The notes under the pieces were generated by a model. It was not told where the DNA came from and did not search any database. It saw only the letters and a program-made list of their open reading frames with translations. This document shows positions 10,720-20,135 of a DNA stretch of 64,000 bases, piece after piece. Each line of letters begins with the position of its first letter. The first letter of the stretch is position 1. Source of the stretch: Gemmatimonadota bacterium (GTDB lineage: Bacteria > Gemmatimonadota > Gemmatimonadetes > Longimicrobiales > Gaopeijiaceae); contig DUBS01000003.1 in the NCBI GenBank assembly GCA_012960225.1, positions 12,145 through 76,144 on the forward strand, written 5' to 3'. The position numbers and the translations under genes are program-made.

Positions 10720-11499
10720 TCAGCCATAGCGACCCTCAATATAGTCAGCGGTCTCTTCTTCTTGGGGTGCTAGAAAGATTTGTTCGGTTACACGGTGCTC
10801 AACCATTCTGCCCAATAGCATGAACGCGGTCTCCTCACTCGCTCGTCTTGCTTGGGCCATATTGTGAGTCACAATCAAAATCGTATAGTCTCCGTGCAGT
10901 TCCCAAATGAGTTCTTCAAGTGCCGCAGTAGCCTTGGGGTCCAACGCTGAAGTAGGCTCATCCATAAGAAGCACGGTTGGCTTGACCGGTAGAAGTCTCG
11001 CTATACAAAGCTTCTGCTGCTCTTCAAGGGACAGTCCAGTAGCCTCTCGACCAAGTCGATCTTTCACTTCATCCCAAAGCAGAACACGACGGAGCGCATT
11101 CTCGACAATTTCGTCCTCTTCCAGTTTGTTGAATTTCTCATCGGCACGGTGGATCCGGTGAGCAAAGAGCACGTTATCTCGTATTGACAGGGGGAGAGGG
11201 TTAGGGCGCTGAAAGACCATCCCTACGTGACGCCGAAGCTGGGACAACTCGACGTCATCACTCAGTATGTCCTGATCAAGGACATGTATCTCCCCTGTCG
11301 TCCGCACATAGTCACCCAATCGCTCATTGATGCGATTCACAGCGCGGAGAAGGGTCGATTTTCCACACCCCGATGGGCCTATGAGCGCAGTGATTGATCC
11401 TCGCTTGACCTGAAGATCAACTTCGAAAAGCGCCTGAAAATCTCCGTACCATAAGCTGACGTTCTGGATGTCGATCGCGAGCGTAGGGGCCTCAACCAA
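10720..11499 (-). CDS. pstB: phosphate ABC transporter ATPase PstB paralog with a degenerate signature motif (copy B)
   Basis: Walker A (GPSGCGKST), Q-loop (VFQRPNP), Walker B (LLMDEPTSALD) and H-loop (VTHNMAQA) are canonical. The signature is LSLEEQQKL instead of LSGGQQQRL. Confidence 0.9.
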   Translation of the reverse strand: MVEAPTLAIDIQNVSLWYGDFQALFEVDLQVKRGSITALIGPSGCGKSTLLRAVNRINERLGDYVRTTGEIHVLDQDILSDDVELSQLRRHVGMVFQRPNPLPLSIRDNVLFAHRIHRADEKFNKLEEDEIVENALRRVLLWDEVKDRLGREATGLSLEEQQKLCIARLLPVKPTVLLMDEPTSALDPKATAALEELIWELHGDYTILIVTHNMAQARRASEETAFMLLGRMVEHRVTEQIFLAPQEEETADYIEGRYG

Positions 11500-12256
11500 A
11501 GCGGCCTTCCAGGTAGTCCAGGGTGCGACGGTCTTTTACTTCACCGCTAAAAAGGGCTTCTGTTTCTCCTACCTCTATCAACTTACCATCCAGGAAGAAA
11601 GCAGTGCGATCAGCAAGCCGACGTGCCTGTTGCACGAGATTTGTCACCAAGATGATAGTGATCTCCTCCTTTAGTTCCTTGAGCACGTCCTCGATACGCA
11701 TCGTGGTCACCGGATCTACGGCAATAGAGAATTCATCAAGCAGCAAAAGTTCGGGATCTTGAGAAAGTGCCCTCGCAATCGTGAGCCTCTGTTGTTGACC
11801 GCCTGAAAGCAGGCTGCCAAGGACATCAAGACGATCTTTCACCTCATCCCAGAGTGCCGCTCGCATGAGGCACTGCTCCACGATTTCATCGAGGGCACTC
11901 TTATCCTTGATTCCTGAGAGCCGCGGAGCTAGTGCGACATTGTCATAGATGCTCAACGGTAGCCCTACAGGTAGAGGGAAAACGACACCAATGCGACGGC
12001 GTAATGCGTAGACGTTCTTGATCTCGGAGATGTCGTGACCATCGAATACGATCGAACCATCGACCGTCATATTCTCCTGTAGCATCTCCATCCGATTCAA
12101 CGTCCGGAGAAAACTCGTTTTCCCGCTGCCAGCAGGCCCGATAATGCCAAAGATCTCATGCTCATGAACATCTAGAGAAACGCCAGAGAGAGCCTGCTGG
12201 CTACCGTATAAGATGTTTAGATCTCTCACAGCAAGTTTCACGTCCGTAACTACCAC
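11492..12256 (-). CDS. pstB: PstB-like ATPase paralog with degenerate Q-loop and H-loop (copy A)
   Basis: Walker A (GPAGSGKTS) and signature (LSGGQQQRL) are canonical. The Q-loop is VVFPLP (Q to P), the D-loop region is DEFSIAVD, and the H-loop is VTNLVQQA (H to N). Confidence 0.85.
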   Translation of the reverse strand: MVVTDVKLAVRDLNILYGSQQALSGVSLDVHEHEIFGIIGPAGSGKTSFLRTLNRMEMLQENMTVDGSIVFDGHDISEIKNVYALRRRIGVVFPLPVGLPLSIYDNVALAPRLSGIKDKSALDEIVEQCLMRAALWDEVKDRLDVLGSLLSGGQQQRLTIARALSQDPELLLLDEFSIAVDPVTTMRIEDVLKELKEEITIILVTNLVQQARRLADRTAFFLDGKLIEVGETEALFSGEVKDRRTLDYLEGRFG

Positions 12257-13164
12257 TTCTTTTTTCCTCTCAGGTAGCTCCGGAACCAGATTGATCCTGC
12301 ATTCATGAGGAGAACTAGTGTGATCAACGTGAGAGCCGTCCCGTATTTGAGTTCATCAGGCGCACCAGGCACGGCAGTTGAGATCACGAATAAGTGCATT
12401 GCCATCGCCATCGTTTGATCAAAGACACTGGTGGGGAGGAATGGGAAAAAGAATGCTGCTCCAGTAAACATGATCGGCGCAGTTTCCCCCGCTGTTCGCG
12501 ATACTGACAGAATGACACCGGTGAGGATCCCACTTATCGCGTTAGGGAGTACGACTGTTCTAATCGTCTGCCAGCGAGTGGCGCCCATGTTCCAACAAGC
12601 TTCTCGAAAGGCCATTGGAACTGCCTGGAGAGACTCACGAGTAGCGACAATAACCAACGGTAGTGTCATAACTGCAAGCGTGAGACTCGCTGCTAAGATG
12701 CTCGTCCCGAATCCGGCAAAGATCACGAAAGCGCCAACCCCAAATAGTGCGTGTACGATTGAGGGCACCCCCGCGAGGTTGATAATCGCGAGGTTGATTC
12801 CTCGGGTCAGCCAGCTATCCGACGCATATTCTGAAAGGTAGATCGCAGCTGCCACGCCCACAGGCACCGAAGCAACCAGTGAGACCGCTACGAGCCATAT
12901 CGTCCCCACAAGGGCTGGCCAAATACCGCCTGCAGTCATCCCGTCACTAGGATAAGAAAAAAGGAATTCAAAAGAGATCGCTGGCCCGCCCCTAACTAAC
13001 AGGACTCCAAAAATAATCCCGACTGGCACAACCAGGATCAGAGTCATCAAACCAAAGAGAGCCCTAAAAAGCCATTGAAGCCGATGGTTACGCGTGTTGA
13101 GCGGGGTCGCCGCAAACATCAGGGACGGCCCAGAAACTCCACCATCCCCTTCAGAATGGGTCAC
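12250..13164 (-). CDS. pstA: phosphate ABC transporter permease PstA
   Basis: Six-TM permease with an EAA-type loop (ESLQAVPMAFREACWNMGATRWQT), positioned between pstC and pstB. Confidence 0.9.
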   Translation of the reverse strand: MTHSEGDGGVSGPSLMFAATPLNTRNHRLQWLFRALFGLMTLILVVPVGIIFGVLLVRGGPAISFEFLFSYPSDGMTAGGIWPALVGTIWLVAVSLVASVPVGVAAAIYLSEYASDSWLTRGINLAIINLAGVPSIVHALFGVGAFVIFAGFGTSILAASLTLAVMTLPLVIVATRESLQAVPMAFREACWNMGATRWQTIRTVVLPNAISGILTGVILSVSRTAGETAPIMFTGAAFFFPFLPTSVFDQTMAMAMHLFVISTAVPGAPDELKYGTALTLITLVLLMNAGSIWFRSYLRGKKKW

Positions 13165-14090
13165 GTTCTCCTCGCCCCCTTAACCACGAAGTCTGCTGTA
13201 AGGTTGATGATAAACGTCACCACAAAAAGCAAGATTCCTAAAGTAAAAAGGGCTCGGTAATGGTCCGAGCCAACCGGAGCATCACCGAGTTCTGCTGCAA
13301 TTGTTGCAGTGATTGCGCGCACTGAATCAAATGGGCTCGTCGGGATCTGGATCGCGTTCCCGCTTGCCATGAGCACCGCCATTGTCTCGCCAAAAGCCCG
13401 ACCTACTCCAAGAAGAACCGCCGCGACAAGACCATTCCTGCCTGCCGGAAGTACAACTCTGAAAATCACCTGCCACTTTGTGGCACCCATGGCTTCAGCT
13501 GCCTCACGGTAGGTATCCGGAACCGCCTTGAGTGCATCTTCAGCAATCGTTGTCATGATCGGGGCAGCCATTAGCCCGAGGATAATACCTGAGTTGAGGA
13601 CTCCGATTCCGACCGGGACGTCAAACATGTCAATAATCAGGGGGTTCATGATCGATAGGCCGATGAAGCCCCATACAACCGACGGGATAGCAGCCAAGAG
13701 TTCAACCAACACCTTAAGGGACTCTCGGAGTCTGCCTGTGGCGAACTCACCGATGAAGATGGCCGCACCAAGTGAGAATGGCACCGAGACCAGCATGGCA
13801 AGACCCGTTACGCTAGCGGTTCCTGCTATAAGCCCGAGAACCCCGTACCTAGGATTCTGAGGGGATGTTGGCCGCCAGGTTATGCTTCCAAGAAACTCCC
13901 GGACATTCAATGGCCCCGCTATGAAACCCACACCCTCTTTGGTGATGAAGACAAAGATCCCGATGATGAAGATGATCGCGGAAATCCCACCCACAAACAC
14001 CAAGAACGTTACCGCTTTATCGACGTACCAATCTCTCCCACGGTGATCAAAGTCCATTGGTGCAGAGGGTTTGACTCGCTTAGTGAGCAT
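13161..14090 (-). CDS. pstC: phosphate ABC transporter permease PstC
   Basis: Permease with an EAA loop (EDALKAVPDTYREAAEAMGATKWQV). It overlaps pstA by 4 nt. Confidence 0.9.
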   Translation of the reverse strand: MLTKRVKPSAPMDFDHRGRDWYVDKAVTFLVFVGGISAIIFIIGIFVFITKEGVGFIAGPLNVREFLGSITWRPTSPQNPRYGVLGLIAGTASVTGLAMLVSVPFSLGAAIFIGEFATGRLRESLKVLVELLAAIPSVVWGFIGLSIMNPLIIDMFDVPVGIGVLNSGIILGLMAAPIMTTIAEDALKAVPDTYREAAEAMGATKWQVIFRVVLPAGRNGLVAAVLLGVGRAFGETMAVLMASGNAIQIPTSPFDSVRAITATIAAELGDAPVGSDHYRALFTLGILLFVVTFIINLTADFVVKGARRT

Positions 14091-15162
14091 CCGGCCCTGC
14101 CAGGGTCTTCATGAGATCCTGAACCCGCACTGCGACCATCTTATACAGGTCTTCCAGCACATCCTTAGAGAACCCTTTCGGGATATCGATTGACCACTCT
14201 AGGACAATCGTTCGGAATGGAACTTCAGCTATATCCTCCAGCACACCGTCTTCGAGAGCGACGATGACATGATAGGGTTGGGCAGGTTCTCCCAAGCCTT
14301 CAATAGGGGACGGTCTCTTATGACTAACATCCATCCCCTGCTCATCCATGAACTCGATCAGGACTGGGTCAAGCGCTCCAGCAGGGCTGACCCCGACACT
14401 CGAATATCTGCCGCTCTCAGGGAAAGCTTTTTCAGCATAAGCTTCTGCCATTTGACTTGCCCGATTGTTCTCCTCACCCACAAACAAAATCCTGAAGATA
14501 CGTGGGTCGCGTTCTCCTCCTGTGATCGCGAAGATCGCCTGCTCACTGATGTTATCCGCCTGCTCAGCAACCCGCTTGAGCAGGTTGTTGATCCTAACCA
14601 ACGCAAAGCTGTCCTGTAGCGGGACCACCCGGTCATTTGCTAATTCCACTAGGTGGTCCAGCACTGTTTTTAACGTCACATCTACAGGGCGAACCAACCC
14701 CTCGTGCGTTTGCAGCGCACGTTCAACATCCTCTTCAAAGAAGGCGGTTAGTGCTTCGCCCAGTGCATGGCCTGCCTGCTGAGCGATGACTTCAACATCA
14801 CGCGTGACACTTTCAGGGGGACGTACCGTCAATCGTAAAACTTCTCTTCCGATCGTGCCGGCATAGTCACCGATCCGTTCCAGCGCCACGTTAAGTCGGA
14901 GAACTGCTGAGGCGAAACGAAGGTGTCCCGCACTCGGCGCATGTCGGATGATGAAGGCATGACACAGGTAGTTGATCTCCTTGATCCGCCGATTTACCTG
15001 ACGGTCTCCTAGGATCACATTGTTCGCGAGATCCTTGTCCCATCCAATAAGCGACTGGACGGTGTCTTTCACCTGATTTTCGACGAGTCCGGCTACCTTG
15101 CGCAGCTTTCTCCGAATCTCATTGAGATCCGCCTGCATTCTCTGCTCATATTGAGGTGTCAT
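14080..15162 (-). CDS. phoU: PhoU fused to a C-terminal cysteine-less ArsC/LMW-PTP-like domain
   Basis: Residues ~1-215 are a two-repeat PhoU (ERIGDYA and RVAEQADNISEQA). Residues ~222-355 align to thioredoxin-type ArsC/LMW-PTP (ILFVGEENNRASQMAEAY versus [18 protein letters not shown] from memory), but no catalytic Cys is present. Confidence 0.8.
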   Translation of the reverse strand: MTPQYEQRMQADLNEIRRKLRKVAGLVENQVKDTVQSLIGWDKDLANNVILGDRQVNRRIKEINYLCHAFIIRHAPSAGHLRFASAVLRLNVALERIGDYAGTIGREVLRLTVRPPESVTRDVEVIAQQAGHALGEALTAFFEEDVERALQTHEGLVRPVDVTLKTVLDHLVELANDRVVPLQDSFALVRINNLLKRVAEQADNISEQAIFAITGGERDPRIFRILFVGEENNRASQMAEAYAEKAFPESGRYSSVGVSPAGALDPVLIEFMDEQGMDVSHKRPSPIEGLGEPAQPYHVIVALEDGVLEDIAEVPFRTIVLEWSIDIPKGFSKDVLEDLYKMVAVRVQDLMKTLAGPDAH

Positions 15163-15198: not shown

Positions 15199-16083
15199 CT
15201 ACGCACAGCTAACTGAACCAGCTGCTGCAAATCCCTTATCCACCAAAATACACTGACCGGCTTCGCCAAGAATCCAGTCCATGTACTCCTTGATTATTCC
15301 TGTCGGCTCCCCAGCAGTGTACATAAAAAGCGGCCTCGCGATGGGGTAGCTTCCATCAATCGCGCTCTCTGCCGACGGTGACACACAGTCCCCCCTGTCA
15401 GTCAAGATACAGGGCATCTCTACTCTCTCCGTGGCGTAAGCGAGACCACTATATCCGATAGCACAGGGCGTATTTCCGACTAGGTCGACCACCTCTGACG
15501 ATCCATTCATATCCAGCGATCCAGGCTTGTACTCAGCCTGACCTAGCACTGCTTCCTTGAAGTAGGCATATGTTCCTGAGTTGTTCTGCCGGCTCACCCT
15601 TATGATCTCATCGCTTGAGCAACCAGGAATGCTTACTCCCAGTTCACTCCAAGTCTCGTAAGCACCACCCTCTGCATAGATCTCAGCAAGCTGTGAGATG
15701 GAGAGCGCATCGATCGGATTGTCAGGGTGAAGAAATACTGCAAGGGCGTCAAAGCCTACGACATGCTCTATAGGATCTATCCCTCGGCTACGTGCTTCCT
15801 CAATCTCACTCTCAGTCATCGCCCTGCTTGTGTTGGCAATATCCACCGTCCCATTAACCATTGCACTAATCCCAGTCCCGGAACCACCACCATTGACCGC
15901 CACGGCAACGCTAGGATTGATATCACCGTAGCTCTCTGCCCAGGCCAAGGCTACAAAGACGATCGTGTCCGAGCCCTTATTTTGGATGACGGTGCGTCTT
16001 GCACCTGAACTTCCATCAGCGCCTCCGCAGGCTAGGGCTACAAAAAGAACCAGAAGAGCTCCGAACATTCGGTTCATAGGCAC
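15199..16083 (-). CDS. pstS: phosphate-binding protein PstS (lipoprotein-type signal)
   Basis: PstS family core (GSDT, GGGSGTGI, TSR), and LFVALAC lipobox. GTG at 16083. The ATG at 16077, preceded by GAGGG, is the more likely start. Confidence 0.9.
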   Translation of the reverse strand: MPMNRMFGALLVLFVALACGGADGSSGARRTVIQNKGSDTIVFVALAWAESYGDINPSVAVAVNGGGSGTGISAMVNGTVDIANTSRAMTESEIEEARSRGIDPIEHVVGFDALAVFLHPDNPIDALSISQLAEIYAEGGAYETWSELGVSIPGCSSDEIIRVSRQNNSGTYAYFKEAVLGQAEYKPGSLDMNGSSEVVDLVGNTPCAIGYSGLAYATERVEMPCILTDRGDCVSPSAESAIDGSYPIARPLFMYTAGEPTGIIKEYMDWILGEAGQCILVDKGFAAAGSVSCA

Positions 16084-16160
16084 ACCCTCATACTAGAGGT
16101 CATGACGCAATTGCTCATATCAAAAGCTATACCCGAACTACTCTCCTACAACGCCTCAAT

Positions 16161-16190
16161 TGTATCAGCAATGTATCAATCGTATCAGCC
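16161..16190. promoter_or_regulatory. Pho-box-like phased direct repeats
   Basis: TGTATCAgcaaTGTATCAatcGTATCA: a 7-bp unit repeated with 11-bp then 9-bp spacing, 80-105 nt upstream of pstS in the divergent pstS/porin gap. The architecture matches PhoB/PhoP-type boxes. Read toward pstS the unit is TGATACA. Confidence 0.5.
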
Positions 16191-16205
16191 TGAAATCTGG
16201 GTTTA

Positions 16206-16240: not shown

Positions 16241-16405
16241 CGAGTTACACTTTGAGAGCTCTGTGGAATTCAGCACTGAATCATCAGTACATGCCAGGAT
16301 TTCTGTGACTGTTTCGTTACGCAATATCCGGCGATCCGTGACGTCAACGTGGCAACCTCTACATGTACGAAGGTTGCAATTTCCCTCCAAGGAGATAACG
16401 GACTC

Positions 16406-17467
16406 ATGAGACATCGTCGGGTTTTTCTGACGCTCCTATTGGCCATGCTTGCAGTTCCTGACGTCGCCGAGTCCCAAATTAAAATCTCCTCAAGAGCATC
16501 ATCAATCCAAGTCGGGGGAAGGGTGCATGCTCAGTACGCCGCCTCATCAGTTGGTGGTGCAGACAATGACTTCTTTCTGCGACGTGTACGCTTGATTGCT
16601 GATATCACATTGAGCGATTTCGTTGCTGCTCGTGTTCAGCCGGACTTTGCCCGCGGAAAGATCGCCCTTCAAGACGTCTACGTGAGGCTCGGATCTTCCA
16701 GCAAGTTCCGAGTTTGGGTGGGGCAGTTCAAACGTGCGTTTGACATCTTTAAACTATCGAGTTCAACCGACCTTTCAATCATCGAACGAGATGCTCGTGT
16801 TGAAGGGGTCTCGGGATGTTCTGGGGTATCCGGCATATGCTCTTACTCACGGCTTACAGAGCAATTGAAGTACGCCGAGCGAGATCAGGGTATCAAGATT
16901 GATGGCTCCTCGGGTCGCCTGAGCTACCAAGCCACTCTCACGAATGGCACCGGGATTAATGTCTCCGACGAAAACGATGCTAAGTCCTATTCGGGACGTG
17001 TCACTTTCGCTGCATCTGAAAAGGTCAGCCTCTCGGGGCAACTCGGTGTCCACGACTATTTGATCGAGTCAGCGGAAAAAAGCACAGCGCGGGGAATCGC
17101 CTGGGGTGGAGATGTGGAGTTTGGTACTTGGAGAGATGGCGCTCACATCCAAGCATCAATAATCCGCGGAGACAATTGGAAGTCACTCGATTCAAGTAAC
17201 TCGGAAGCGACATTTTTCACTACTCAGATTGTCGCGTCTTATTACACTGAACATCGCGGTCAATTAGCTGGAATCGAGCCTCTACTGCGGCTGAGCTTTG
17301 GTGACCCTGACACAGCTGTTGGCAAGAACGCAGGGACCGTCGTTACCCCAGGGTTGATGTTCTACCTACAGGGCAAGAGCAAGATCGGGGCAAACCTTGA
17401 CATTTACTCACCCCAATCAGGCGACACAGCCCTATCATTTAAGGTCCAGACCTACCTTTATTTCTGA
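16406..17467 (+). CDS. phosphate-selective porin (OprO/OprP family)
   Basis: Signal peptide MRHRRVFLTLLLAMLAVP. Porin_O_P-like N-terminal block (FFLRRVRL ... VGQFKRAFD ... IERD) and a C-terminal YLYF. AAGGAG lies upstream of the ATG at 16406. Confidence 0.8.
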   Translation: MRHRRVFLTLLLAMLAVPDVAESQIKISSRASSIQVGGRVHAQYAASSVGGADNDFFLRRVRLIADITLSDFVAARVQPDFARGKIALQDVYVRLGSSSKFRVWVGQFKRAFDIFKLSSSTDLSIIERDARVEGVSGCSGVSGICSYSRLTEQLKYAERDQGIKIDGSSGRLSYQATLTNGTGINVSDENDAKSYSGRVTFAASEKVSLSGQLGVHDYLIESAEKSTARGIAWGGDVEFGTWRDGAHIQASIIRGDNWKSLDSSNSEATFFTTQIVASYYTEHRGQLAGIEPLLRLSFGDPDTAVGKNAGTVVTPGLMFYLQGKSKIGANLDIYSPQSGDTALSFKVQTYLYF

Positions 17468-17540: not shown

Positions 17541-19268
17541 CTATTCCGTCGGCACGGTAAATCGAACTGTTGTTCCCTGACCGAGTTGACTCTCCGCGAC
17601 AACCTCTCCGCCCATTTCCGATACTAGGTGGCGAACAATCGCTAACCCGAGGCCCGTTCCTCCAAAGTCTCTGGCTCTAGCAGAATCAGCTCGATAGAAA
17701 CGCTCAAAAATTCGTGGCAATGACTCAGCAGGAATTCCGTCACCGTCATCTGAGATCACCACCTCAACCATAGAATCTTGGGTCAGGGCCATAGAAACAT
17801 TGATTGAGCCCCCGCTATCGGTATGCCGAATAGAATTCTCGAGCAAGTTTCTAAAGATGTGAAATAGCCCCTCGCGGTCACCCATGACCCTCAGGTTACC
17901 GCGGATATCGAAGGAAATTCCTTCCTTGCCTTCGATGTCTCTTACCACCTGCCATGCCTCTTGTGTTACCTCCTTCGTATCCACTGACTCTCGGCGCCCA
18001 GTCCATCCACCTGATTCCAGTTTAGATAGATCTAAGAGGTCCTCCACTAGGTGCTCTAGTCGGAGCGTGTTCTTACGAATCGAGGTAAGGAACTCCAATT
18101 TGAGCTTCTCTGGCGGGTCATCATCAAGCAGTGTTTCCGCATACCCTCGAATCGAGGTAAGAGGTGTCTTCAGTTCATGCGATGCGTTTGCTACAAAGTC
18201 ACGTCTTACTTGTTCAAGCCGGCGAATTTCACTGATGTCTAACAACGTTGTGACGGCACCCCCTGGATCTAAGGCACGAGATGAGACCAGTAAGTGTCTC
18301 CCATTGACCTCAACTTCATCTGAATTACCTGGCCTGATTACGGAATCCTCCAGGATAGAGCGCAGTTTGTTATCGCTGACCACGGAGTTGACTGGAGCAA
18401 GAACTGGTGTATCTAGTAACTCAAGGAGTGCACGAGCACTCCGATTCATACGGATTACCCTGGCATCCTCACTAAGCGCAATAACACCCTCAGCCATGCA
18501 ATCAATGAGTGTCTGCATTTCTTCACGCTCATGCCCAAGCTCGGTCAACCGAGACTGAAGTTCATCAGTGAGTAGATTGAACGCATCAGTAACATCTTGA
18601 AGCTCGGTGACCTTCGCATCCGGAACTCTCACCCTGTAATTCCCTTTACTGAACTGTCTCGCCCGTTGCGCCAAGAGTACCAGTGGCCTCGTTAGAGCGA
18701 TACTGATCATATAAGCCGCTGCAAGAGCAAAGAGCATGGCTAATAAACCAGTCAGAGCAACAGTCCTCTGCACTCCAGAGACTGTACGCTCTATACCTGT
18801 TTGTGGGGCAGCAATTCTCATAATAACCGAGGAGCCGTCGAGTATGATCAGTCTAGCTGCATAGAGAAGTGGCTCGGCAACAGTCTCGCTCGTGCGTTCC
18901 GCAAAACTCACGGTCTCACCACCAACTAACACGCCCTGAACCTCAGGGCGGTCGTAGTGATTCTCAACCTCAGGCAGTCGCGCTAGTTCTACGTGAGAAT
19001 CACCGAGTACACGGCCATCAGGATCAATGAAGGTGACTCTGTAGCCAATGCGATCCGTGATCTCTCCTGCAACCGAATCCAGGTCGACTAATTCAGCTTC
19101 CTGAACGACCCATTCACCTAGGGCGAGCTGCCGCTCCAAATCCGCCCGAACCGTCAATCCAAGTTCCCTTCTGAGGCCACTGCTTACTAATAGCACAATC
19201 AGGACTAGAAGAAGCCCAATGACGCCTAAGAAAGCGGCAAAGAGAGGGTATTGGATCCTTATGCGCAT
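17541..19268 (-). CDS. phoR: sensor histidine kinase PhoR-like, with a roughly 140-aa extracytoplasmic domain
   Basis: TM1, periplasmic segment, TM2, HAMP, PAS, HisKA (SHELKTPLTSIRGY) and HATPase (N, G1, G2 boxes). Confidence 0.85.
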   Translation of the reverse strand: MRIRIQYPLFAAFLGVIGLLLVLIVLLVSSGLRRELGLTVRADLERQLALGEWVVQEAELVDLDSVAGEITDRIGYRVTFIDPDGRVLGDSHVELARLPEVENHYDRPEVQGVLVGGETVSFAERTSETVAEPLLYAARLIILDGSSVIMRIAAPQTGIERTVSGVQRTVALTGLLAMLFALAAAYMISIALTRPLVLLAQRARQFSKGNYRVRVPDAKVTELQDVTDAFNLLTDELQSRLTELGHEREEMQTLIDCMAEGVIALSEDARVIRMNRSARALLELLDTPVLAPVNSVVSDNKLRSILEDSVIRPGNSDEVEVNGRHLLVSSRALDPGGAVTTLLDISEIRRLEQVRRDFVANASHELKTPLTSIRGYAETLLDDDPPEKLKLEFLTSIRKNTLRLEHLVEDLLDLSKLESGGWTGRRESVDTKEVTQEAWQVVRDIEGKEGISFDIRGNLRVMGDREGLFHIFRNLLENSIRHTDSGGSINVSMALTQDSMVEVVISDDGDGIPAESLPRIFERFYRADSARARDFGGTGLGLAIVRHLVSEMGGEVVAESQLGQGTTVRFTVPTE

Positions 19269-19373: not shown

Positions 19374-20135
19374 CTATTCCAGATTCTTCTTTAGGCGATA
19401 ACCAAATCCCCGCACAGTCTGAATGGAATCACCAGCTGTACCGAGCTTGGCTCGTAGGCGCTGCACATGTATGTCAACTGTACGTGTCTCAAGTCGATCC
19501 GACACATCAGCCTCAACATCCCAAGCTTTTTCCAAAAGCTGCCTTCTACTTAGTGTTCGCTCACGGCACTCTAGAAGCGCACGGAGCAATCTGAACTCCG
19601 TCGGCGTCAGGGATACATCTTCGTCCAAAACCGAGACCTGCATCGCGCTAACATCCATATGAATGGGGCCCACTCGGAAAACTCTTAATCCCGCAGATCC
19701 TCCTCCAGATTCAGGTGCTCTCCTCAGGATAGCCTGAACCCTGAGCACCAGCTCTCGTGGACTAAATGGTTTGGTTAAGTAATCGTCAGCGCCCAACTCC
19801 AAACCTGCAATGCGCTCTTCCTGTTCCTTCTTGGCAGTCAATACTAAGACGGGGATTCCCTCAGTTTCCGGGTCATCCTTCAAGCGACCCAAAACCTCAT
19901 CACCACTAATACCAGGAAGCATACGATCCAGAACAATGAGGTCGGGAATGTCTCGTCCCACCGCCCTCAGAGCTTCAATCCCATTCAAAGTAGTCTCAAC
20001 CCTGAAACCTGCGCGGGTCAGTTGGTAGCCGATAAGAGCAGCAATGTCAGGTTCATCCTCTACGACTAGGACTCTTTGATTCCCGGAAGTAACCTGGGAA
20101 CCGGGTTCCTTACTATCATTGACAAACGTTTTCAT
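19374..20135 (-). CDS. phoB: OmpR/PhoB-family response regulator
   Basis: Receiver domain (VLVVEDEPDI ... LIVLDRMLPG ... LTAK) plus a winged-helix output (LTPTEFRLL ... VDIHVQRLRAKL ... GFGYRL). It sits upstream of phoR. Confidence 0.85.
   Translation of the reverse strand: MKTFVNDSKEPGSQVTSGNQRVLVVEDEPDIAALIGYQLTRAGFRVETTLNGIEALRAVGRDIPDLIVLDRMLPGISGDEVLGRLKDDPETEGIPVLVLTAKKEQEERIAGLELGADDYLTKPFSPRELVLRVQAILRRAPESGGGSAGLRVFRVGPIHMDVSAMQVSVLDEDVSLTPTEFRLLRALLECRERTLSRRQLLEKAWDVEADVSDRLETRTVDIHVQRLRAKLGTAGDSIQTVRGFGYRLKKNLE

Follow-up and report, generated by a model that had tools for sequence, protein, structure and literature searches.

A PhoU protein fused to a catalytically dead arsenate reductase-like domain in a Pst cassette of Gemmatimonadota

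Introduction

Here we describe phoU-LMWPc, a gene found in a stretch of 64,000 nucleotides from a marine Gemmatimonadota bacterium (GenBank assembly GCA_012960225.1, contig DUBS01000003.1; this whole stretch is referred to below as the window). Its product is a PhoU protein that continues into a second domain with the fold of arsenate reductases (ArsC) and low molecular weight (LMW) phosphatases, from which the residues needed for catalysis have been lost. The gene lies in a fixed cassette of phosphate transport (pst) genes, beside a pair of ATPase genes whose products are predicted to be asymmetric.

How PhoU senses the status of the transporter, or of phosphate, remains unresolved. According to the literature cited in two papers (PMC12976172, PMC12096839), E. 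coli PhoU couples the ATPase PstB to PhoR and restrains transport. In recent structural work on PstSCAB, the signal to PhoR is still called unclear (PMC12976172). The proteins discussed here show that a whole lineage of abundant environmental bacteria, made up of Gemmatimonadota from the sea and from soil, some of the Acidobacteriota and other groups, makes use of a PhoU that carries a pseudoenzyme domain.

The phoU-LMWPc gene and its place in the Pst cassette

The window carries a complete Pho locus, with phoB, phoR and the pst cassette all on the minus strand. The cassette opens with pstS (15199..16083), which encodes the periplasmic phosphate-binding protein (Pfam PBP_like_2, 131 bits) and is the first cassette gene in related loci also. 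It is followed by phoU-LMWPc (14080..15162), by the permease genes pstC (13161..14090) and pstA (12250..13164), both matched by Pfam BPD_transp_1 and both conserved in position, and by two copies of pstB (both Pfam ABC_tran), the first at 11492..12256 and the second, pstB', at 10720..11499. The phoU-LMWPc open reading frame, assigned from the list of open reading frames, the sequence itself, Pfam and homologues, begins with ATG, has no internal stop and encodes 360 amino acids before its stop codon.

A phoU gene placed second in the operon rather than last was remarked on as atypical in the initial annotation of this DNA, and the order is not peculiar to the window: pstS, phoU-LMWPc, pstC, pstA, pstB and pstB' follow one another in 51 of 52 genomic loci, in all of the phyla represented by their labels, with one locus (L052, described below) as the exception. 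The end of phoU-LMWPc and the start of pstC overlap by 11 nucleotides (ATGCTCACTAA, 14080..14090, minus strand), as they do in L001–L006 and L008, and this overlap of stop and start codons points to translational coupling of the two genes. No terminator-like site was found on the coding strand between pstS and phoU-LMWPc, no second PhoU or LMWPc gene was found within the window, and scans of it for Rfam families and tRNAs gave no match.

A PhoU bundle joined to an ArsC-type fold

The protein can be divided into a PhoU part (residues 1–215; 14518..15162, minus strand), a linker (residues 216–222; 14497..14517, minus strand) for which conservation tables give the family consensus G-E-T-R-D-P-R, and the dead ArsC/LMW-phosphatase-fold domain (residues 223–357; 14092..14496, minus strand). 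Pfam finds PhoU (PF01895) in two stretches, scoring 75 bits against a cut-off of 23.5. The NCBIfam model TIGR02135 (phoU_full) matches residues 7–215 at 106.9 bits, under its cut-off of 130.25, and the PhoU equivalog model NF008332 fails with 82.7 bits against 342; by NCBI thresholds, this part reads as a divergent PhoU and not as an equivalog.

In the C-terminal part, LMWPc (PF01451) is found at residues 225–351 with the model covered from position 1 to position 144, scoring 31.2 bits in the whole protein and 33.9 bits when the domain is taken alone (cut-off 23.2). The same model was matched by 34 of 60 diverse domains of the family searched separately. Residues 224–350 also match the NCBIfam models for LMW-fold arsenate reductases TIGR02689 (44.6 bits, cut-off 157.6) and TIGR02691 (24.7 bits, cut-off 174.3), failing the equivalog cut-off in both cases. 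Among structures in the PDB, the best sequence matches are the glutaredoxin-coupled ArsC of Synechocystis (E 4e-9) and then a Corynebacterium ArsC, and a profile of the family's C-terminal domains retrieves ArsC 3RH0 (E 5e-11).

An AlphaFold2 model of the fusion protein, built on 79 family members, shows the helices of residues 3–214 as a six-helix bundle followed by a beta-alpha domain, with a mean predicted local distance difference test (pLDDT) score of 90 and a predicted template-modelling (pTM) score of 0.78. When compared with known structures using Foldseek, the N-terminal part superimposes on PhoU 4Q25 with a template-modelling (TM) score of 0.91 and a root mean square deviation (rmsd) of 1.9 Å, and the C-terminal part on pI258 ArsC 1JF8 with a TM score of 0.89 and an rmsd of 2.0 Å across 131 columns. 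The pLDDT falls only to about 75 in the linker, and the pTM value suggests that the two domains have a defined orientation to each other. A true PhoU is thus joined to a domain of the ArsC/LMW-phosphatase fold, much as the initial annotation had proposed when it read the product as a two-repeat PhoU with an ArsC-like extension.

With canonical PhoU proteins (E. coli, P. aeruginosa; structures 4Q25 and 1T72) the fusion has in common the two-repeat, six-helix bundle, the D/E-xxx-D/N motifs of each repeat and a gene in the pst operon close to phoBR; a role in linking PstB to PhoR is presumed for it also. Residues D53, N57, E95, D99, D161, Q201 and N204 of the PhoU part are invariant in the family. 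Unlike the canonical proteins, it has about 145 additional C-terminal residues that form a second globular domain, its gene lies between pstS and pstC where theirs is last, and its PhoU part is only 22–31% identical to PhoU proteins of solved structure.

The second domain shares its fold along its whole length with the arsenate reductases of Synechocystis (2L17), C. glutamicum (ArsC2, 3RH0), S. aureus (pI258, 1JF8) and B. subtilis (1JL3), with TM scores of 0.85–0.89. It also retains the length of their P-loop, the P-loop Asn and Ser (N232 and S236, aligned with N13 and S17 of pI258 ArsC), the QMAE helix that follows, the SAG motif and the Trp after beta-4 (W323). The Asn, the Ser and the QMAE helix had already been picked out as kept. 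To judge from these alignments, the domain descends from a thiol-coupled arsenate reductase of the LMW-phosphatase fold.

Distribution of the fusion family

The fusion is kept in hundreds of uncultured bacteria. More than 100 full-length homologues, 351–368 amino acids long and 50–96% identical, were retrieved from a set of 5.8 billion proteins. Many are already tagged PF01895 plus PF01451 in precomputed Pfam annotation. Most come without a source name, those that are named being called 'phosphate transport system protein', 'hypothetical protein' or 'PhoU domain-containing protein'. Their NCBI names point to metagenome-assembled genomes (MAGs) of Gemmatimonadetes or Longimicrobiales. Among GTDB species representatives, at least 52 loci match the protein across residues 1–359; the other 28 matches are ordinary PhoU proteins that align with residues 1–215 only. 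With the taxonomic labels of MAGs accepted at face value, the majority of the 52 loci belong to Gemmatimonadota and the other labels are Acidobacteriota/Holophagae, Latescibacterota, Rhodothermales, Bacteriovoracaceae and one Pseudomonadota MAG. The window protein itself is about 95% identical to those of Gemmatimonadales UBA7889 and UBA1120.

The chance that two genes were joined here by an assembly or frameshift artefact is negligible, and we excluded it, since the same uninterrupted architecture recurs in these independently assembled genomes of species representatives, and again in over 100 clusters of proteins and dozens of contigs from metagenomes, and the linker is itself conserved; the initial annotation was right to treat the fusion as genuine.

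When the C-terminal domain alone was searched against 1.84 billion cluster representatives, about 139 clusters (at 50% identity) were found at E ≤ 1e-10. Nearly every one of the best 150 matches is either one of the proteins of 350–366 amino acids with the domain at around 215–360 or an N-terminally truncated fragment with the same C-terminus. This near-exclusive occurrence in fused form implies that the domain exists essentially only as an appendage of PhoU and, in contrast to the ArsC enzymes, is almost never free-standing. Intact C-x-x-N-S-A-R-S loops are seen in only two of the best 150, P0253 and P0254, which are different proteins. These are 282–284 amino acids long, with an intact ArsC-type domain (C-T-x-N-S-A-R-S) at 148–256 and an unidentified N-terminal part, and are the nearest catalytically intact relatives found with the dead domain as query.

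The one locus without the cassette (L052:6971-8071, in an Acidobacteriota MAG) holds an orphan copy of the fusion with no pst genes around it. Its neighbours, which are Tad pilus, TPR, MscS-like and cytochrome c genes, offer no functional hint, and its C-terminal domain went undetected as LMWPc by Pfam at E ≤ 1e-4.

Full-text searches of the literature found no paper in which PhoU and LMWPc are named together, and none that reports a fusion of PhoU with LMWPc, an arsenate reductase or a pseudophosphatase, and a 2026 phylogenomic survey of PhoU-type regulators left out PhoU proteins with additional Pfam domains (PMC13170248). The combination of PF01895 and PF01451 is visible in precomputed annotation but appears uncharacterised. 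The initial annotation had allowed that the architecture might turn out to be both common and already characterised; common it is, within a few phyla, but no characterisation came to light.

Loss of the catalytic residues

Where active enzymes have the motif CX5R(S/T), the window protein has the pseudo-P-loop G229-E-E-N-N-R-A-S236 (14455..14478, minus strand), as seen in alignments with ArsC proteins and in the family counts given below. The mapping of residues onto pI258 ArsC was corroborated by alignments with PDB entries. The nucleophile C10 corresponds to G229 (nucleotides 14476-14478) and the redox cysteines C82 and C89 to E304 and I311, replacements that had been noticed from the first; in Synechocystis ArsC, the closest solved relative, the Cys pair of the LCGC motif corresponds to E304 and G306. 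The P-loop Arg (R16) aligns with A235, and the general acid D105 with I327, a position occupied by V, I or L in the family, although the loop varies in length and the alignment there is less certain.

These losses extend across the family. Among 121 close homologues the nucleophile position is Asp in 84, Gly in 37 and Cys in none. Among 150 diverse representatives it is Asp in 121, Glu in eight, Gly in four and Cys in two, both Cys rows being the non-PhoU proteins P0253 and P0254. On these counts Asp is the norm for the family and the Gly of the window protein a derived state. At the canonical Arg position the close homologues have Ala, Ser or Val, and the diverse representatives have Leu in 55, Ala in 26 and Arg in about four. 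The residue before it is Cys in 32 of the 150, which reads as a relic of an ancestral C-x4-C-R loop.

The initial annotation had described the P-loop Arg as displaced by one position. R234 does lie one residue ahead of the R16 equivalent, but this Arg is specific to a clade: it is present in 67 of the 121 close homologues and replaced by Cys, Leu or Gly in the wider family. The loop as a whole is labile, with GEENNRAS, GHENNRAS and GRENNRAS among proteins that are 76–96% identical and GDRNERGS as a further variant within the window's clade. On average, the domain carries a net charge of about -6.

With the Cys nucleophile, the P-loop Arg, the resolving Cys pair and the general-acid Asp all gone, the domain is to be classed as a pseudoenzyme and not as an arsenate reductase. 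As far as its residues can tell, we regard it as firmly established that it is incapable of ArsC or LMW-phosphatase chemistry, and it offers a clean bacterial case of an arsenate reductase turned pseudoenzyme. Phosphatase folds that lack the catalytic Cys and have been reused for binding or scaffolding are known from STYX and from the trypanosome protein mt-SAF26 (6SGA), a structural protein of the LMWPc fold that appears among both the sequence and the fold matches of the domain. The STYX pseudophosphatase has Gly at the Cys position, keeps its P-loop Arg and binds phospho-proteins. The fusion family, in contrast, has lost the Arg, and its setting is a bacterial transport regulator.

A conserved face and a conserved tail

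Beyond the residues inherited with the ancestral fold, the family has new conserved positions of its own, a point of difference from the ArsC enzymes: K245-x-F-P-x-S-G251, H298, P315-F-x-T318, L350 and G356. In the secondary-structure string of the model these sit directly ahead of beta-2, beta-3 and beta-4 and where the last helix ends. Given that the P-loop follows beta-1 in a parallel alpha/beta fold, the family-specific positions would lie at the edge of the sheet opposite the P-loop, and it is by this same edge that the linker from PhoU would enter.

The extreme C-terminus, TLAGPDAH (residues 353–360; 14083..14106, minus strand), is nearly invariant. In conservation counts over the 121 homologues G356 and A359 are invariant and P357 is found in 115, and 95% of the diverse representatives have G356. 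Among the Gemmatimonadota homologues of the window's clade TLAGPDA[RH] barely varies, while the P-loop turns over fast. At the level of sequence, the ArsC-like domain is under strong purifying selection. In the AlphaFold2 model, pLDDT is below 50 at residues 358–360; a tail that is near-invariant yet modelled with low confidence shows the pattern expected of a short partner-binding peptide.

Two PstB copies with complementary degenerate motifs

The ATPase layer of the transporter is also unusual. The first PstB retains both of its Walker motifs, A and B, and the signature LSGGQQQR (the latter in 46 of 47 orthologues), but the Q-loop Gln is replaced by Pro, giving VVFPLP in all 47, and the H-loop His by Asn, again in all 47 (VTNLVQQA in 43, VTNLVQQV in three and VTNLTQQA in one); its D-loop, DEFSIAVD, is unusual as well. 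PstB' has canonical Walker A and B motifs, Q-loop and H-loop together with a degenerate signature, LSLE[EA]QQK (LSLEEQQK in the window). Of 49 aligned rows, 47 have the H-loop VTHNMAQA and 47 the degenerate signature, the remaining two being gaps.

In a head-to-tail dimer these complementary degenerate motifs would give one canonical ATP site and one that is degenerate in three motifs, and PstB and PstB' are accordingly predicted from their motifs to form an asymmetric ATPase heterodimer with one working and one degenerate site. The complementary pattern is conserved in about 47 pairs of orthologues. Two adjacent pstB genes in one pst operon are known from Firmicutes, where pstB1 and pstB2 of E. 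faecalis have non-identical roles and canonical motifs in both copies (PMC12096839); the copies described here differ in the complementary degeneration of theirs.

All homologues retrieved with the first PstB as query were at least 87% identical to it, and that search is uninformative on the spread of the degenerate type. Scanning metagenomes for DEFSIAVD yielded 120 contigs, of which 107 carry this type of PstB. An LMWPc-like domain is encoded upstream of PstB in all 31 of the contigs with at least 2.9 kb of upstream sequence. However, a plain PhoU of approximately 220–230 amino acids is encoded directly after pstB' in five of the 44 contigs with enough downstream sequence, and in one truncated contig. 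On these six contigs (L081, L087, L110, L161, L188 and L197), which we refer to as the sister cassette, the plain PhoU is about 26% identical to the PhoU part of the fusion, and no LMWPc-like domain was detected, their upstream sequence being too short to exclude a fused PhoU. We therefore reject the idea that the degenerate PstB pair goes exclusively with the fusion, since all six show a plain PhoU in last place. The sister cassette implies that the asymmetric PstB pair is older or broader than the fusion and independent of the extra domain.

What does the ArsC-like domain do?

The fusion protein is a PhoU accessory regulator belonging to a distinct, vertically conserved type of Pst cassette. 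As to the second domain, the contrast between a variable P-loop and a conserved opposite face and tail makes a docking or regulatory module likelier than a phosphate pocket, and we would give an even chance to the dead domain serving as such a surface. Under this proposal the PhoU bundle would keep its usual job, linking PhoR to the state of the PstB ATPase dimer and holding transport in check, and the ArsC-like domain, held on its short conserved linker, would tie PhoU more stably to the PstB/PstB' dimer or to PhoR. Docking would take place through the family-specific face opposite the P-loop and through the extreme C-terminal tail. In most of the family the old oxyanion cradle would probably be closed off by the domain's own conserved Asp; in the window's clade, where the Asp is Gly, it would have been abandoned.

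Several points weigh against this proposal. Both the docking role and the opposite-face placement are read from the order of secondary-structure elements in the model. The length of the P-loop, its Asn and Ser/Thr and the neighbouring SAG motif have been kept, such that the backbone cradle may still bind an anion, and an Asp in place of the nucleophile resembles the native thiolate and would not have to prevent binding. Finally, in the sister cassette the same degenerate PstB proteins are paired with an ordinary stand-alone PhoU.

The most serious competitor, and the one put forward in the initial annotation, is that the domain is a built-in cytoplasmic sensor of oxyanions, whose dead P-loop binds inorganic phosphate or arsenate and whose occupancy alters the action of PhoU on PstB or PhoR. 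In that case the substrate being transported would exert a kind of trans-inhibition. MetN, ModC and MalK carry C-terminal regulatory domains on the ATPase subunit and bind substrate in defined pockets, leading to trans-inhibition. The fusion resembles them in having an extra cytoplasmic domain at the ATPase layer of an importer, where it could modulate transport, but differs in that the domain is carried by an accessory protein and has no evident conserved pocket. The idea draws strength from the derivation of the domain from an oxyanion-binding enzyme, from the retained P-loop length, N232, S236 and SAG motif, from the charge of the Asp in most members, which is that of the native thiolate, and from the host protein, which is believed to report transporter status. 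Pseudophosphatases such as STYX (Cys to Gly) do bind phospho-ligands, and an anion may still be bound through backbone amides. However, the P-loop Arg, which is the main side-chain ligand of the oxyanion, has given way across the family to Leu or Ala, the shifted R234 is not conserved, the side chains of the loop vary between close relatives and are often acidic, the domain as a whole is negatively charged, and the general-acid loop, which forms one wall of the pocket, is variable in both sequence and length. That the Arg is gone throughout the family, and that the side chains of the loop turn over rapidly, speaks against a sensor of phosphate or arsenate, the conservation lying elsewhere in the domain, and we consider such a sensor unlikely. 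The fuller version of the idea, in which the domain acts allosterically so that PhoU reads cytoplasmic phosphate, arsenate or a phosphate-metal complex and shuts down the asymmetric PstB/PstB' motor, seems to us similarly doubtful. Were it true, the domain would be a natural and separable 'sensor module' for the signal to which PhoU responds.

Less probable again is a cation or metal site, in which the acidic pseudo-P-loop (consensus D-E-x-N-D) would bind Mg2+, Mn2+ or a metal-phosphate complex. Two or three of the first five loop positions are Asp or Glu in the consensus, together with the conserved Asn, and the idea would extend the known binding of metals by PhoU, as reported for the E. coli protein (Gardner et al. 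2014, as cited in PMC12976172). Against this, the acidic positions vary apart from D229, and position 229 is Gly in the window's own clade. That the domain is still an enzyme with some new chemistry, for example an Asp-based phosphatase, is very improbable: most members do have Asp in place of the Cys nucleophile, but the position is Gly in 37 of the 121 close homologues, and the domain lacks the Arg, the general acid and the two redox Cys. For the window protein, in which the residue is Gly, we rejected Asp as a new nucleophile.

Whichever of these applies, the fusion is a real, widespread and as yet unstudied elaboration of phosphate signalling, the function of which we infer. Should the domain bind a ligand, or a partner as in the docking proposal, it would provide a tractable and separable handle on PhoU signalling. 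If it is merely a structural appendage, it would still be a useful marker of a distinct Pst subtype.

Other features of the Pho locus

Upstream of the cassette lie genes for a phoR-like histidine kinase (17541..19268, minus strand; HAMP, PAS, HisKA and HATPase domains in Pfam) and a phoB-like response regulator of the OmpR family (19374..20135, minus strand; Pfam Response_reg and Trans_reg_C). The kinase has about 190 residues ahead of its HAMP domain, in which two hydrophobic segments, identified by eye, flank a stretch of ~140 amino acids. This stretch probably lies outside the cytoplasm. The PhoR of E. coli lacks a periplasmic sensor domain.

A candidate Pho-regulated promoter is found upstream of pstS (16159..16192, minus strand), where three [C/T]TGATAC repeats spaced 9–11 nucleotides apart lie at the -35 region of a sigma-70-like site, the promoter-like match itself running from 16188 to 16159. 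This is the sole such cluster in the window and could be a Pho box. The repeats are conserved in L001 and L002 only, with a single copy in L006; their restriction to the closest relatives gives weak support to a Pho promoter, and on the same grounds we rejected TGATAC as a general Pho box.

Divergent from pstS is a gene for a phosphate-selective porin of the OprO/P type (16349..17467, plus strand; Pfam Porin_O_P, 42 bits). Homologues of this porin also adjoin the cassette in L001, L002, L006, L030, L034, L038, L040 and L051.

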